64,000 bases of DNA from the NCBI RefSeq assembly GCF_003334355.1, contig NZ_QOWP01000008.1. One strand, written 5' to 3'. The notes beneath the pieces are model-generated. The model was not told the origin of the DNA and made no database searches. It saw only the letters and a program-made list of their open reading frames with translations. Shown here piece after piece: positions 15,394 to 38,680 of the stretch (within the stretch, counting starts at the first letter, position 1; every line of letters begins with the position of its first letter). The DNA is from Escherichia coli (GTDB lineage: Bacteria > Pseudomonadota > Gammaproteobacteria > Enterobacterales > Enterobacteriaceae). Both the position numbers and the translations under genes were made by a program.

Positions 15394-16353
15394 TTATGCC
15401 ATCGACGCGTAAAGGTTTTTAATGGTTTCCCGTAACCAGACGATCTTCGGATTATGGCTGTTCCGTTTATGCCACAGCAGGGTAAAAGGAACTTCCAGCT
15501 TTTTTTGCTGGCTTTCGTCAAACGGGAGAGGAAGAGCAACCAACGGCAGTTGATGGAGTTGATTGTAGTACTGACAGTAGCGCGGCGCGGTCGCCAGTAG
15601 CAGATTGTCGGGTTGCGCTGCCATAAACAGTGACTGCTCAAATTCCGGCAGGCTCATAGCAATCGTGCGTTCGCGCCCCAGCTCCTGTAACACATTGTCC
15701 AGCGCCCAGGTGTCGCTCTGTTCCCAGCAAATGCTGATATGCGGATAACGTAAAAAGGTGTCCAGATTCCACGTTTCATGCAGTGCCGGATGATCTTTGC
15801 GTAACCAGACGCAGGGTACATCACTAAACAGCACTTCATAATCAATGGCTAACGGTAGCGAGCTTAACAGCTCCCGCGAGCGAGGATGGCTTTCGCGACC
15901 GGAAAAACCAATATCCACTTCACCACGAGTAATGGCATCTAAGGAATCGTAATCCCAGTTACGTAGTTTGATGGTCGCCTGCGGGTAACGTTGGTAGATC
16001 CGTTTCGACAGCGCATTAAGCATGATCATCATCAGCGGCGATTCCGCCGCCAACTCAAACTTCAGGCCGCGCGGTGTCTGGTGGTGCGGTTTATCCAGCA
16101 GCAGATTGCTCATTTGCATCCATTCCGCCAGATTTTGCTCCATGCTGACCATTAGCGGTGTGGGCGACAGGCCCAGCGGTGAGTTCACAAAGAGCGGGTC
16201 GTCAAACCACGCTCTTAACTTTGCCAGCGACTTACTCACCGCTGAAGGGGTCACGTTCATCCGCTTCGCCGCTTTGGTCACGCTGCGCTCCTGCATCAGC
16301 AGTTGCAGACAGAGCAGCAGATTGAGATCAAGCGTGGTGATGGATTTCTTCAT
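15394..16353 (-). CDS. yidZ: LysR-family transcriptional regulator YidZ
   Basis: 319 aa from [13 protein letters not shown]; N-terminal LysR HTH; overlaps the 3' end of mdtL. Confidence 0.9.
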
Positions 16354-22396: not shown

Positions 22397-24043
22397 TCAG
22401 GATTTTTTCTTCTCGCGGCTATGCAGGCCACGTTTTTCCAGACCACGGTAAATCAGCTGCTGCTGAATAATGGTTACCAGGTTGCTGACGATATAGTACA
22501 GCACCAGACCTGACGGGAACCACAGGAAGAACACGGTGAAGATGACCGGCATAAAGGTCATGATCTTCTGCTGCATCGGGTCGGTCACTGTGGTCGGCGA
22601 CATCTTCTGAATGAAGAACATCGTTACGCCCATCAGGATCGGCAGGATGTAGTACGGGTCCTGTGCCGACAGGTCGTGGATCCATAGTGCAAACGGTGCC
22701 TGACGCAGTTCAACGGAACCCATCAGCATGTAGTACAACGCCAGGAAGATTGGCATCTGGATCAGCAGCGGGAAGCAGCCGCCCAGCGGGTTAACCTTCT
22801 CAGCTTTGTACAGCGCCATCATTTCCTGGCTGATACGCTGTTTGTCATCGCCCAGACGCTCACGCATTGCCTGAATCTTCGGCTGCAACATACGCATCTT
22901 CGCCATGGAGGTGTACTGCGCTTTGGTCAGCGGGTACATGATGCCACGAACGATAAAGGTGATGATGATAATGGAGAAGCCCCAGTTACCCACAAAGCTA
23001 TGGATCCATTTCAGCAGTTTGAACAGCGGCTGAGAGATGAACCACAACCAACCGTAATCAACGGTCAGATCCAGGTGCGGAGCAACAGCTGCCATTTTGT
23101 CCTGGATTTCCGGGCCAACCCACAGGGTGCTGTTCATCGCGCCAGTCTGACCAGGCTGAACCAGTACCGGCTGAGATTTATAGCCGATAGCGGCGATGCC
23201 GTTACCCAGATTAGCGGTATAGAAGTTGTTGGTACCGTCGTTATGCGGGATCCACGCCGTCGCGAAATACTGTTGCAGCATCGCCACCCAACCACCTTTC
23301 GAAGAGATGTTCAGGTTTTCGTTATCGGCAATGGTATCGAACTTGTATTTCTCATACTTCTCGTCAGGCGTGGAGTACGCCGCGCCACGGAAGGTGTGCA
23401 GTGCGAAGTTGCTGCTTCCGGTATCGAGATGCGGTGGCAGAGTGATGGATTGCTTCAACTGACCAAACGAGGAGATTTCCAGCGGTTTCTCGCCAGCGTT
23501 CTGCACGTTGTAGTTGACGTTGACAGCGTAATCACCACGTTTCAGGACAAACGTTTTGGTAAACGTGTTGCCTGCCGCGTCGGTATACGTCATCGGCACC
23601 TGCAGTTCGTTTTGACCTTCAGCCAGCACATAAGCGTCTTTTTCAACGTTATACAGCGGACGCGGGCCGTTAGCCGGGTTATCCGGGCCATCACGACCGG
23701 TCAGACCGCTCTGTGCCTGATAAATAAACTGCGGTGAAGTTTCCAACAGCTGGAACGGCTGGGTAGAGTTCAGCTCTTTCGGGTAAGCAGGCAGCAGAGC
23801 TTGCTCAACATCACCACCACGGGTGTTGATGGTCAGATCAAGCACGTCGGTCTTAACCGAGATCAGTTTCCCCTGGCCACTGGCCGGTACGCCCTGGTCG
23901 GCGGCGCTACCCGCTGCGGTGGTCGTTGTCTGCGTGGTCTGTTGGGCCTGAGGTTGCGGGTTTTTATCCTGCTCCCAGGCTTGCCAGATCATGAAAGACA
24001 CGAACAGCAAAGCGATGACTAAAAGATTGCGTTGCGAATCCAT
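22397..24043 (-). CDS. yidC: Membrane protein insertase YidC
   Basis: 548 aa; characteristic N- and C-terminal sequences. Confidence 0.97.
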
Positions 24044-33023: not shown

Positions 33024-33680
33024 TTATTGGTTTACTGCATATACAACCAGAAATTGCAGCGGTGCAGTAATGATGTCCAGCGTAACAGTCACTGGCAGTA
33101 ATGCTGCGGAAACACCATCCGGAATGCCTCTGGGTGAATAGTATTCATAAAATCGCACTTTAAATGGATGGTAGAACGCCATCACCTTTGAGTAATCCAT
33201 GTTTTTATTTTTCTCATGGATTGTGCCTTTTAGGTTTTCCAGTGACCTGGTACAGTGTTGAACACCACAGGCAAAACCATAATGCGTTGCCAGTGCCTTT
33301 TCTTCTTCGTTATTCCAGTAGTAGTAAAGCGATATTGTGCCGGTAAATTTCTTTTTCCCCGCATTTAAAACAAATCTTGCGTCATCGGCAACCTGAATAT
33401 TGTGCCGGTTAAGTGCTGGATCATTGAGCATCTTAACGATGTCATCGGCACCATCAGTGATAAGGTAATCCAGCGATTCCCCTACAAAAACATAGCCTTT
33501 TGTTCCATTACTATCTTTTGCCTGCGATAGCCCAGTGATGGTGTCTGACTGCGATTGATACTTTCCTGAACTACCCTTTGCGGTATGGGAAACCAGAGCA
33601 TACGAGATACAGCCTGAAAGCATCAGCGCCAGTGGGAATAAACCGGCAGCCTTAAAAAATCCCTTAAAATTCAACTTCAT
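33024..33680 (-). CDS. yidX: Putative lipoprotein YidX
   Basis: 218 aa from [24 protein letters not shown] (lipobox LSGC); the track ORF extends 39 codons upstream. Confidence 0.85.
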
Positions 33681-33817
33681 GATTAATCCTTTAAACGAGT
33701 AGCTAAGCCGTTGAAAGCATACTCTTCTTTCCCTCCTGTTTAGCGCCTGATATCCCTTTTCAGATTTCTGCCCGACGCATGTCATTTTTTTATGCATTGT
33801 TCTTTTTGTGATCTAAA

Positions 33818-33889
33818 TTGTAGTACAACAATATAAGTTTGTACTACATTACGCACACGGCAAACGCGAACGTCATCACGCTGGTACTA
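33818..33889. promoter_or_regulatory. Putative DgoR operator palindromes in the dgo promoter
   Basis: Repeated TGTA-N-TACA palindromes: tgtagtaca, tgtactaca, and a gtactac half-site upstream of dgoR. Confidence 0.55.
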
Positions 33890-33957
33890 CAAAGTTGCCG
33901 CGTTATGCATCGATCGGGGTAAAGTAGAGAAGAACATACAGAGCACAAGGACTCTCC

Positions 33958-34647
33958 ATGACTCTCAATAAAACCGATCGCATTGTCATTACGCTGGGTA
34001 AACAGATCGTTCACGGCAAATACGTACCTGGCTCGCCACTTCCGGCTGAGGCGGAGCTCTGTGAAGAGTTTGCAACCTCGCGCAACATCATCCGTGAGGT
34101 GTTCCGTTCGTTGATGGCGAAACGGCTGATTGAAATGAAACGTTATCGCGGCGCGTTTGTGGCACCGCGTAACCAGTGGAATTACCTCGACACTGACGTA
34201 CTGCAATGGGTGCTGGAAAACGACTACGACCCACGGCTTATCAGTGCCATGAGCGAAGTGCGAAATCTGGTGGAACCGGCGATTGCCCGTTGGGCAGCAG
34301 AGCGCGCGACCTCCAGCGATCTGGCGCAGATTGAATCGGCGCTGAACGAGATGATTGCCAACAATCAGGACCGCGAAGCGTTTAACGAAGCGGATATTCG
34401 CTACCACGAGGCGGTGCTGCAGTCGGTGCATAACCCGGTGTTACAGCAACTTAGCATTGCGATCAGTTCGCTGCAGCGGGCGGTTTTTGAACGAACCTGG
34501 ATGGGCGATGAGGCCAACATGCCGCAAACGCTCCAGGAACATAAGGCGCTGTTCGATGCGATACGGCATCAGGACGGCGATGCGGCAGAGCAGGCGGCGC
34601 TTACCATGATCGCCAGCTCGACACGAAGGTTAAAGGAAATCACATGA
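33958..34647 (+). CDS. dgoR: Galactonate operon repressor DgoR (GntR/FadR family)
   Basis: 229 aa; N-terminal winged HTH; synteny with dgoKADT. Confidence 0.93.
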   Translation: MTLNKTDRIVITLGKQIVHGKYVPGSPLPAEAELCEEFATSRNIIREVFRSLMAKRLIEMKRYRGAFVAPRNQWNYLDTDVLQWVLENDYDPRLISAMSEVRNLVEPAIARWAAERATSSDLAQIESALNEMIANNQDREAFNEADIRYHEAVLQSVHNPVLQQLSIAISSLQRAVFERTWMGDEANMPQTLQEHKALFDAIRHQDGDAAEQAALTMIASSTRRLKEIT

Positions 34648-35522
34648 CAGCTCGCTACATCGCAATTGACTGGGGATCGACCAATCTGCGCGCCTGGCTT
34701 TATCAGGGCGACCACTGCCTGGAGAGCAGGCAATCAGAAGCAGGCGTCACGCGCCTGAACGGAAAATCTCCGGCTGCGGTGTTAGCAGAAGTCACGACCG
34801 ACTGGCGTGAAGAAAATACGCCAGTGGTGATGGCAGGAATGGTCGGCAGCAATGTCGGCTGGAAAGTTGCTCCGTATTTATCTGTTCCTGCCCGTTTTTC
34901 GTCTATTGGCGAACAATTAACGTCTGTTGGCGACAATATCTGGATTATTCCCGGATTATGCGTCTCTCATGACGATAACCACAATGTGATGCGCGGCGAA
35001 GAAACACAATTGATCGGCGCGCGAGCTCTGGCTCCTTCCTCTCTTTATGTTATGCCCGGTACGCATTGCAAATGGGTGCAGGCCGATAGCCAGCAAATCA
35101 ACGATTTTCGCACCGTGATGACCGGTGAATTACATCATTTACTGTTAAATCACTCATTGATTGGCGCAGGTTTGCCGCCGCAGGAAAACTCTGCCGATGC
35201 CTTCGCGGCTGGCCTTGAGCGCGGCCTTAATGCGCCCGCCATATTGCCGCAGCTTTTTGAAGTTCGCGCCTCGCATGTGCTGGGAACACTTCCCCGCGAA
35301 CAGGTCAGCGAATTTCTCTCTGGTTTGTTGATTGGCGCAGAGGTTGCCAGTATGCGCGACTATGTGACCCATCAACACGCCATCACCCTTGTCGCCGGAA
35401 CATCGCTGACCGCGCGCTACCAGCAAGCCTTTCAGGCGATGGGTTGCGACGTGACGGCGGTGGCGGGCGACACGGCATTTCAGGCTGGTATAAGGAGCAT
35501 CGCACATGCAGTGGCAAACTAA
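34644..35522 (+). CDS. dgoK: 2-dehydro-3-deoxygalactonokinase DgoK
   Basis: 292 aa; start overlaps the dgoR stop. Confidence 0.93.
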   Translation: MTARYIAIDWGSTNLRAWLYQGDHCLESRQSEAGVTRLNGKSPAAVLAEVTTDWREENTPVVMAGMVGSNVGWKVAPYLSVPARFSSIGEQLTSVGDNIWIIPGLCVSHDDNHNVMRGEETQLIGARALAPSSLYVMPGTHCKWVQADSQQINDFRTVMTGELHHLLLNHSLIGAGLPPQENSADAFAAGLERGLNAPAILPQLFEVRASHVLGTLPREQVSEFLSGLLIGAEVASMRDYVTHQHAITLVAGTSLTARYQQAFQAMGCDVTAVAGDTAFQAGIRSIAHAVAN

Positions 35523-36123
35523 ACTCCCGCTGATCGCCATTTTGCGCGGCATTAAGCCCGACGAGGCGCTGGCGCATGTTGGCGCGGTGATTGACGCCGG
35601 GTTCGACGCGGTTGAAATCCCGCTGAATTCCCCACAATGGGAGCAAAGCATTCCCGCCATCGTTGATGCGTATGGCGACAAGGCGTTGATTGGCGCAGGT
35701 ACGGTACTGAAACCTGAACAGGTCGATGCGCTCGCCAGGATGGGCTGTCAGCTCATCGTTACGCCCAATATCCATAGTGAAGTGATCCGCCGTGCGGTGG
35801 GCTACGGCATGACCGTCTGCCCCGGCTGCGCGACGGCGACCGAAGCCTTTACCGCGCTCGAAGCGGGCGCGCAGGCGCTGAAAATATTTCCGTCATCGGC
35901 TTTTGGTCCGCAATACATCAAAGCGTTAAAAGCGGTATTGCCATCGGACATCGCAGTCTTTGCCGTTGGCGGCGTGACGCCAGAAAACCTGGCGCAGTGG
36001 ATAGACGCAGGTTGTGCTGGGGCGGGCTTAGGCAGCGATCTCTATCGCGCCGGGCAGTCCGTAGAACGCACCGCGCAGCAGGCAGCAGCATTTGTTAAGG
36101 CGTATCGAGAGGCAGTGCAATGA
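35506..36123 (+). CDS. dgoA: 2-dehydro-3-deoxy-6-phosphogalactonate aldolase DgoA
   Basis: 205 aa, KDPG-aldolase family. Confidence 0.93.
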
Positions 36124-37268
36124 AAATCACCAAAATTACCACGTATCGTTTACCTCCCCGCTGGATGTTCCTGAAAATTGAAACCGATGAAGGCGTGGTC
36201 GGTTGGGGCGAGCCCGTGATCGAAGGCCGCGCCCGTACGGTGGAAGCGGCAGTTCACGAGCTGGGTGACTATTTGATTGGTCAGGATCCATCGCGCATCA
36301 ATGACTTATGGCAAGTGATGTATCGCGCCGGATTCTATCGCGGCGGTCCGATCCTGATGAGCGCCATCGCCGGGATTGACCAGGCGTTATGGGATATCAA
36401 AGGTAAAGTGCTGAATGCGCCGGTCTGGCAACTGATGGGCGGCCTGGTTCGCGACAAAATTAAAGCCTACAGTTGGGTTGGCGGCGATCGTCCGGCGGAT
36501 GTTATCGACGGCATTAAAACGCTACGCGAAATCGGCTTCGATACCTTCAAACTGAACGGTTGTGAAGAACTGGGGCTAATTGATAACTCCCGCGCGGTAG
36601 ATGCGGCGGTTAACACCGTGGCACAAATTCGTGAAGCTTTTGGCAATCAGATTGAGTTTGGTCTTGATTTCCACGGTCGCGTCAGCGCGCCGATGGCGAA
36701 AGTGCTGATTAAAGAACTGGAGCCGTATCGCCCGCTGTTTATTGAGGAGCCGGTGCTGGCGGAACAAGCCGAATACTACCCGAAACTGGCGGCACAAACG
36801 CATATTCCACTGGCGGCGGGTGAACGCATGTTCTCACGCTTCGATTTTAAACGCGTGCTGGAGGCAGGCGGTATTTCGATTCTGCAACCGGATCTCTCCC
36901 ACGCGGGCGGTATTACCGAATGCTACAAAATCGCCGGAATGGCAGAAGCCTATGACGTGACCCTTGCGCCGCACTGTCCGCTCGGACCGATTGCACTGGC
37001 GGCTTGCCTGCATATCGACTTTGTTTCCTATAACGCCGTACTTCAGGAACAAAGTATGGGAATTCATTACAACAAAGGCGCGGAGTTACTCGACTTTGTG
37101 AAAAACAAAGAAGACTTCAGCATGGTCGGCGGCTTCTTTAAACCGTTAACGAAACCGGGCTTAGGCGTGGAAATCGACGAAGCTAAAGTGATTGAGTTCA
37201 GTAAAAATGCCCCGGACTGGCGTAATCCGCTCTGGCGTCATGAAGATAACAGCGTAGCAGAGTGGTAA
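36120..37268 (+). CDS. dgoD: D-galactonate dehydratase DgoD (enolase superfamily)
   Basis: 382 aa from [25 protein letters not shown]. Confidence 0.95.
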
Positions 37269-37387
37269 TTCCTGCCACGTAAGCCCCTCATCGGGCACTA
37301 AAACAGCAATACAAAAATATAACCCTCTGTAAATTACAGGGCATGGTGAGCGGCTTCGCTATGCCCAAAATCTGGAGAAAGCTCGCT

Positions 37388-38680
37388 ATGGATATTCCCG
37401 TTAATGCAGCAAAGCCGGGGCGTCGGCGTTATCTGACGCTGGTGATGATCTTTATTACGGTAGTCATTTGTTATGTCGACCGCGCCAACCTGGCCGTGGC
37501 TTCCGCCCATATTCAGGAAGAGTTCGGTATTACCAAAGCGCAAATGGGCTATGTATTTTCGGTCTTCGCCTGGCTTTATACGCTATGTCAGATCCCCGGC
37601 GGTTGGTTTTTAGATCGCGTAGGTTCTCGCGTGACTTATTTTATTGCGATATTTGGCTGGTCAGTGGCGACTTTATTCCAGGGCTTTGCCTCGGGATTAA
37701 TGTCATTAATTGGTCTGCGCGCGATAACCGGTATTTTCGAAGCGCCCGCTTTCCCGACCAATAACCGGATGGTGACCAGCTGGTTCCCGGAACATGAACG
37801 CGCTTCTGCCGTTGGTTTTTATACGTCTGGTCAGTTTGTCGGTCTGGCGTTTCTGACTCCGCTGCTGATCTGGATTCAGGAGATGTTGAGCTGGCACTGG
37901 GTGTTCATTGTCACTGGTGGTATCGGCATTATCTGGTCGCTGATTTGGTTTAAGGTTTATCAGCCGCCGCGCCTGACCAAAGGTATCAGCAAAGCTGAAC
38001 TGGATTACATTCGTGATGGCGGCGGTCTGGTGGATGGTGATGCGCCGGTGAAGAAAGAGGCGCGTCAGCCGTTAACAGCCAAAGACTGGAAACTGGTGTT
38101 CCATCGGAAACTGATCGGCGTCTATCTTGGGCAATTTGCGGTGGCTTCTACACTGTGGTTTTTCTTAACCTGGTTCCCGAACTATTTAACCCAGGAAAAA
38201 GGAATCACGGCGCTGAAAGCAGGCTTTATGACCACGGTGCCATTCCTCGCGGCGTTTGTCGGCGTCCTGCTCTCTGGCTGGGTCGCGGATCTGCTGGTAC
38301 GTAAGGGCTTTTCACTGGGCTTTGCGCGTAAAACGCCGATTATCTGCGGCTTGCTGATCTCCACCTGCATTATGGGCGCTAACTACACTAACGATCCGAT
38401 GATGATTATGTGCCTGATGGCGCTGGCATTCTTCGGCAACGGTTTTGCTTCGATTACCTGGTCGCTGGTCTCTTCTCTGGCACCGATGCGCCTGATTGGT
38501 TTAACCGGTGGCGTGTTTAACTTCGCCGGTGGTCTGGGCGGCATCACCGTTCCGCTGGTGGTGGGGTACCTGGCGCAGGGTTACGGTTTCGCACCTGCAC
38601 TGGTTTATATCTCCGCCGTCGCGTTGATTGGCGCGCTCTCTTACATCCTGCTGGTGGGCGATGTGAAGCGCGTTGGCTAA
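37388..38680 (+). CDS. dgoT: D-galactonate:H+ symporter DgoT (MFS)
   Basis: 430 aa from [22 protein letters not shown]; the track ORF starts 15 codons upstream. Confidence 0.93.

Follow-up and report, generated by a model that had tools for sequence, protein, structure and literature searches.

Singh et al. 2019 (J Bacteriol 201:e00281-18) is reportedly the primary paper on the DgoR operators IR1 and IR2 of Escherichia coli K-12, and Arya et al. 2021 is said to treat them as well. The DgoR model as published through 2025, a supplementary figure legend included, comprises two inverted repeats only, the second of which (IR2) carries one mismatch (PMC11705089, PMC12288454). The published IR1 duplex oligonucleotide, from the Chaba laboratory, is 5'-CTAAATTGTAGTACAACAATAT-3' (PMC11705089, PMC12288454), and EMSA of DgoR binding to its operator and of release by D-galactonate is also in the literature (PMC11705089). 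Sort-Seq revealed a mutational footprint of the repressor type at -140..-110 relative to the dgoR ATG (Belliveau et al. 2018, PNAS; PMC6003448). This footprint disappears when dgoR is deleted or D-galactonate is present, and DgoR was enriched on the corresponding DNA by DNA-affinity mass spectrometry (Belliveau; PMC6003448). The same work described class II activation by CRP, with a TGTGA logo at -160..-140 from the dgoR ATG, and a RNAP site at -30..-70 that is active in glucose (Belliveau; PMC6003448). In Reg-Seq, relative to a presumed transcription start site (TSS), a repressor site for DgoR was assigned to -37..-28 and CRP to -50..-30. In Salmonella, a single hemimethylated GATC at -147 of dgoR has been tied to bistable, Dam-dependent dgoR expression (PMC7708049). 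More generally, operators of the FadR subfamily of GntR regulators follow the consensus TKGT-N3-ACMA, and DgoR belongs to the class with a 3-nt spacer (Suvorova et al. 2015, PMC4494728).

The DNA that we analyzed, a stretch of 64 kb hereafter called the window, is part of the E. coli chromosome and contains the yidX / dgoRKADT locus. Its segment 33600-34100 is 100% identical to several E. coli genomes, which are annotated there as yidX (minus strand) and dgoR, and its open reading frames agree with the K-12 gene order in the RefSeq annotation, gyrB-yidB-yidA-yidX, then dgoR-dgoK-dgoA-dgoD-dgoT. The original prediction, made by reading the sequence, had placed repeated palindromes upstream of dgoR. 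The gene assignment holds, since the ORF 3' of the palindromes (33958..34647, plus strand, ATG at 33958) is dgoR by RefSeq annotation, by its Pfam domains (GntR, a wHTH, at residues 7-68 and FCD at residues 98-218), and by a match of residues 1-229 to PDB 7C7E, the DgoR structure, with E = 3.7e-149. This GntR/FadR-family repressor gene is the first of the dgoRKADT operon. The regulated structural genes dgoK, dgoA, dgoD and dgoT follow at 34644..38680 on the plus strand, as indicated by the ORFs and by the RefSeq annotation of the identical K-12 locus. The two palindromes thus lie 5' of an operon whose first gene encodes a protein with GntR and FCD domains.

Direct reading of the sequence places tgtagtaca at 33819-33827 and tgtactaca at 33840-33848, precisely where they had been predicted. 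Each is the reverse complement of the other and is also palindromic about its own central base. In their full extent they correspond to IR1, TTGTAGTACAA (33818..33828), a perfect inverted repeat centered on G, and to IR2, TTGTACTACAT (33839..33849), which has one mismatch as in the published model and lies 21 bp from IR1, center to center. Window positions 33813-33834 read ctaaattgtagtacaacaatat, in exact identity with the published IR1 oligonucleotide. Together, IR1 and IR2 span -140..-109 relative to the dgoR ATG, and the Sort-Seq footprint converts to window positions 33818-33848. The proposal that these palindromes are operators for DgoR is therefore corroborated both by the identity with the IR1 oligonucleotide and by the Sort-Seq/mass-spectrometry footprint at the same interval. 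In other words, IR1 and IR2 are the already published DgoR operators, rediscovered here from the sequence. The K-12 allele is identical to the window at IR1, at IR2 and at the third box that is described below.

The prediction had left conservation in orthologous dgo promoters to be checked, with its lack as grounds for abandoning the palindromes. We retrieved the dgoR loci of 80 different Enterobacterales species, ranging from Escherichia whittamii to Pantoea, Tatumella and Affinibrenneria, whose DgoR proteins are 79-99% identical to E. coli DgoR. One locus was left out because its contig ends inside dgoR (L073), so the analyzed set consists of 79 upstream regions plus the window, i.e., 80 sequences. 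IR1 is the perfect TTGTAGTACAA in 74/80 sequences, IR2 has at most one mismatch in 74/80, and the spacing of 21 bp is kept in all 80. Across the alignment of 79 sequences, the commonest base of a column has a mean frequency of 0.99 in IR1 and 0.95 in IR2, against 0.59 in the 10-bp spacer between them. Both operators and their spacing are therefore maintained across the 80 sequences.

Could the repeated motif nevertheless be an effect of chance or of base composition, with no regulatory meaning? Look-alike copies elsewhere in the window speak for this. The sequence GTACTACA occurs seven times (0.55 expected), four of these outside the dgo region (at 15564, 22648, 22729 and 26544), and a box matching TTGTANTACAA at 10/11 positions, ATGTAGTACAA, lies at 22728-22738 within the ORF in the position of yidC (22397-24043, minus strand). 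That box encodes Leu-Tyr-Tyr-Met and its score with the weight matrix described below equals that of IR2. The GTACTACA copies at 22648 (22648-22655) and 22729, which are 81 bp apart, both encode Tyr-Tyr (TAC TAC). We accordingly treated the four outside copies as coding or chance occurrences rather than regulatory sites, those at 22648 and 22729 being put down to a codon effect. Against chance stand the numbers for the motif as a whole. There are four occurrences of TTGTANTACA in the 64-kb window when 0.33 are expected, a count reached by none of 100 shuffles, and three of the four matches to TTGTANTACAA with at most one mismatch fall inside 75 bp of the dgo promoter, the fourth being ATGTAGTACAA. 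Moreover, position and sequence are kept in 80 species, and published experiments have shown binding of DgoR to IR1 and IR2 (PMC11705089, PMC6003448). Chance is a negligible explanation of the repeated motif, and for IR1 and IR2 it is refuted by the published binding and by the conservation.

The operators are embedded in P1, the galactonate-inducible, CRP-dependent promoter, and overlap its CRP site, -35 region and -10. A scan of 33680-33980 for consensus sigma-70 promoters returned no match; P1 and the downstream promoter P2 are weak and activator-dependent, and their positions are therefore based on the literature and on conservation. The CRP class II activator site lies at 33807..33822 on the plus strand, supported by the logo and class II activation in Belliveau 2018 and by Reg-Seq. 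Its left half is TGTGA (33807-33811), and its degenerate right half, TTGTA (33818-33822), is located within IR1. This site, TTTTTGTGATCTAAA, is nearly invariant among the 79 aligned sequences. The hexamer TACATT (33845..33850, plus strand), named as the wild-type -10 by Belliveau (PMC6003448), is overlapped by IR2, while IR1 overlaps the -35 region and the right half of the CRP site. When the center of the CRP site (33814.5) is set at -41.5 and the Reg-Seq coordinates are taken into account, the TSS of P1 would be near 33856, which would place IR1 at -38..-28 and IR2 at -17..-7, over TACATT. The overlap of operators and promoter is published; the TSS coordinate is one that we infer here.

A Dam site, GATC (33810..33813), is included in the CRP half-site TGTGATC and adjoins IR1. 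Its adenine (33811) is at -147 from the dgoR ATG, the position of the hemimethylated GATC of Salmonella (PMC7708049), and it is invariant in the 79 aligned species. Some 60-90 bp further upstream than the CRP site, the yidX-proximal sequence of E. coli is replaced in the loci of Salmonella, Citrobacter and Klebsiella (L012, L018 and L019) by a terminator-like element, a GC-rich hairpin with a T-run after it (CCCGCG...CGCGGGTTTTTTT). Since this yidX-proximal part is replaced in these genera, the conserved regulatory module appears to start only at about 33798 (ATTGT.CTTTTTGTGATC). We also noticed an ATGCAT direct repeat flanking the operators (TTATGCATTGTTC and TTATGCATCGATC, 33790-33802 and 33903-33915), which we set aside as probably due to chance because neither E. 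coli ST131 nor other genera preserve it.

A third element, gtactac, had been described as a half-site at 33883-33889. The element is present, but it is located at 33884-33890 and is not a half-site, since it is part of a full DgoR-like box, TGGTACTACAA (33882..33892, hereafter site 3), which would occupy approximately +27..+37 of the P1 transcript. Site 3 matches TTGTANTACAA at 10/11 positions, the same as IR2, and its center is 43 bp from that of IR2 and 64 bp from that of IR1. With center-to-center distances of 21, 43 and 64 bp, all three boxes would be on one helical face. A weight matrix built from the IR1 and IR2 sequences of the 80 species gives 19.9 bits for IR1, 17.9 for IR2 and 14.8 for site 3. 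Within the window these rank first, joint second (a tie with the box at 22728) and fourth, respectively.

Site 3 is conserved far beyond E. coli. In 79/80 species, it is the best matrix match between IR2 and the ATG, and the leader match exceeds the 99th percentile of shuffled leaders in 69/80. The frequency of its commonest base is 0.91, compared with 0.56 in the 32 bp upstream and 0.70 in the 25 bp downstream. Although the spacer sequence is variable, the distance between IR2 and site 3 is 43 bp in 71/80 sequences and deviates by a single base pair (42 or 44 bp) in nine. Because of the kinship among the 80 species, such counts represent fewer independent observations. Within E. coli, five divergent alleles have nine substitutions in 33798-33963, none of them within IR1, IR2 or site 3. 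We found no mention of a third box in the literature examined, the 2025 papers included, although an earlier notice, e.g., in Singh et al. 2019, is possible. A literature search with the literal sequence of site 3 returned unrelated primers only.

Because the P1 transcript includes site 3, the conserved leader segment might work as RNA, through a structure in the 5'-UTR or as the target of a small RNA in the dgoR leader of about 100 nt, and the E. coli sequence, taken alone, does contain inverted repeats there. Three observations oppose this. RNAalifold predicted no base pairs for 33 diverse leaders, the fold of the E. coli leader is no better than that of shuffled sequence (z = +0.26), and the partner arm, at 33855-33863, is not conserved. 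We consider a function at the RNA level very improbable and rejected it on the first two of these results.

A more serious alternative is that site 3 is not a site for DgoR at all, but has been kept for the sake of P2, of which it would be an upstream element or one close to the -35, or for another factor, its likeness to the operators being a leftover of an ancient duplication or a coincidence. P2 itself would be a second, basal promoter downstream of P1, corresponding to the RNAP site at -30..-70 that Belliveau saw active in glucose. A block, GGTAAAGTAG (33918..33927, plus strand), has a conservation of 0.93 and contains TAAAGT (33920-33925), which is likely the -10 of P2. The candidate -35, TTGCCG (33895-33900), is weak and the -35 region poorly conserved. 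If these putative hexamers are correct, site 3 would be centered near -45 of P2 and would abut its weak -35. Measured start to start, site 3 is located 37 bp upstream of GTAAAGT in 67/69 sequences that match the search pattern, the other 11 sequences showing ATAAAGT or something close to it there, mostly GATAAAGT, and site 3 borders the RNAP site reported by Belliveau at -30..-70. Although that scan covers site 3, it reported an RNAP site there and no repressor-like signal (PMC6003448); in Reg-Seq, the dgoR values are NA for 0..+44, i.e., downstream of the TSS.

The imperfection of site 3 bears on the same question in two ways. Its perfect-palindrome form would read TTGTACTACAA, and this is found in 0/79 sequences. 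The core AC is what the defect hits in most genera (TGCAA or TTCAA), so binding is expected to be considerably weakened, which fits an element that is not an operator. The way in which the defects are distributed points in the opposite direction. The left half is perfect and the right half defective (TTGTACTGCAA, the variant of an Enterobacter species, or TTGTACTTCAA) in 60 sequences, the right half is perfect and the left defective (T[A/G]GTACTACAA) in 16, as in Escherichia, Salmonella, Klebsiella and Citrobacter, both halves are defective in three, and there is no sequence in which neither is. The association has a Fisher p of 4e-14, a value that is uncorrected for shared ancestry, so the distribution may stem from just a few events. 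Defects in one half at a time are the pattern to be expected if one good half-site and a partial one must be kept. Two further findings argue against P2 or another factor as the reason for conservation. The positions conserved in site 3 are those of the DgoR motif (T.GTA[C/G]T.CAA), with its symmetric GTA...CAA and C or G in the center, and the phasing of site 3 with IR1 and IR2 is constant within 1 bp.

Complete dgoR-dgoK-dgoA-dgoD clusters are also found on IncF and MOBH plasmids, with DgoR proteins 86-88% identical to the chromosomal one, namely on the E. coli plasmid pRHB31-C01_3 (L085) and the K. pneumoniae plasmid P1 (L086). In these two plasmid operons, IR1, IR2 and the TAAAGT block are kept, and site 3 is a remnant with 2-3 mismatches. 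Its decay next to a retained TAAAGT has been counted in favor of a role unrelated to DgoR. Since it is degraded in two operons that retain IR1 and IR2, site 3 is at least dispensable on plasmids. Weighing these points, we regard conservation of site 3 for P2 or another factor as possible but doubtful. The reading that we prefer is that site 3 is probably a weak auxiliary DgoR operator, as its motif, phasing and conservation suggest, and we lean, with some reserve, towards DgoR binding to it in vivo. What is new here is a single detail, a conserved and always imperfect third DgoR-like box that is absent from the two-site model.

Together, these findings make us highly confident that the regulatory region of dgoRKADT, with the DgoR operators IR1 and IR2 and a putative third box, is the overall explanation for the repeated motif. 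According to published work, DgoR binds with one dimer per palindrome and one monomer per TTGTA half-site. The dimers on IR1 and IR2 sit on the same face of the DNA, since the centers of the two repeats are two helical turns (21 bp) apart. With IR1 lying over the -35 region plus the right CRP half-site, and IR2 over the -10, bound DgoR excludes both RNA polymerase and CRP from P1. Induction follows when D-galactonate binds the C-terminal FCD domain and DgoR is released, allowing cAMP-CRP to activate transcription, as has been published.

Site 3 would add to this scheme a third operator, deliberately sub-optimal, 4.1 helical turns from IR2 and 6.1 from IR1. A DgoR dimer on it would abut the weak -35 region of the basal promoter P2. 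From there, it could tune dgoR autoregulation by limiting P2, or it could strengthen the repression of P1, either as a roadblock or through cooperative contacts. On the sequence evidence, our preference, by a modest margin, is for a third dimer that would bind weakly and have one or the other of these effects. Whether the dgo control region has three DgoR operators rather than two, with the third, always imperfect, setting the basal level of DgoR or sharpening induction, we see as an even call.

Since the DgoR operator had already been mapped by mutational and biochemical means, IR1 and IR2 hold little discovery value in themselves. What is now at hand is the comparative test, in which IR1, IR2 and their 21-bp spacing prove essentially invariant in 80 Enterobacterales species. 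Selection in the mouse gut acts on dgoR repeatedly, and in Salmonella the gene is expressed heterogeneously (PMC7708049). For these two reasons, an auxiliary operator that tunes basal DgoR or the induction threshold would be of interest to the field. A third operator, if real, would enlarge the two-dimer model and could be relevant to the expression of dgoR in Salmonella, which is bistable and Dam-sensitive, although even then it would alter no general principle.

The closest known system is the dgo promoter of E. coli K-12 itself, which agrees with the window in the locus, in the sequence of IR1, in the single mismatch of IR2 and in the distance from the dgoR ATG. The K-12 model has two repeats, and in the texts examined the box at 33882-33892 is not part of it. 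DgoR is reported to be a dimer, not a tetramer (PMC11705089). The expectation that the palindromes would follow the style of GntR/FadR operators is confirmed, since the motif agrees with the FadR-subfamily consensus TKGT-N3-ACMA, with 3 nt from GT to AC. Like other operators of this subfamily, all three dgo boxes are A/T-rich palindromes with this spacing, reading TTGT-AGT-ACAA for IR1, TTGT-ACT-ACAT for IR2 and TGGT-ACT-ACAA for site 3, the last of which, in its E. coli form, has no mismatch to the consensus. The specificity of DgoR, TTGTA-N-TACAA, differs from the TGGT...ACCA of FadR, PdhR and LldR. LldR, a repressor of the FadR subfamily, is among the repressors that have an auxiliary operator downstream of the transcription start. 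At lldPRD, Aguilera et al. 2008 (J Bacteriol) reportedly described two LldR operators, O1 and O2, one near the promoter and the second at about +22..+38, and are said to have proposed that they cooperate. Unlike the LldR case, site 3 of dgo is a candidate only, and its distances of 43-64 bp from the other boxes leave no room for a simple loop between dimers. In position, the candidate site 3 (approximately +27..+37) and O2 of LldR are comparable.
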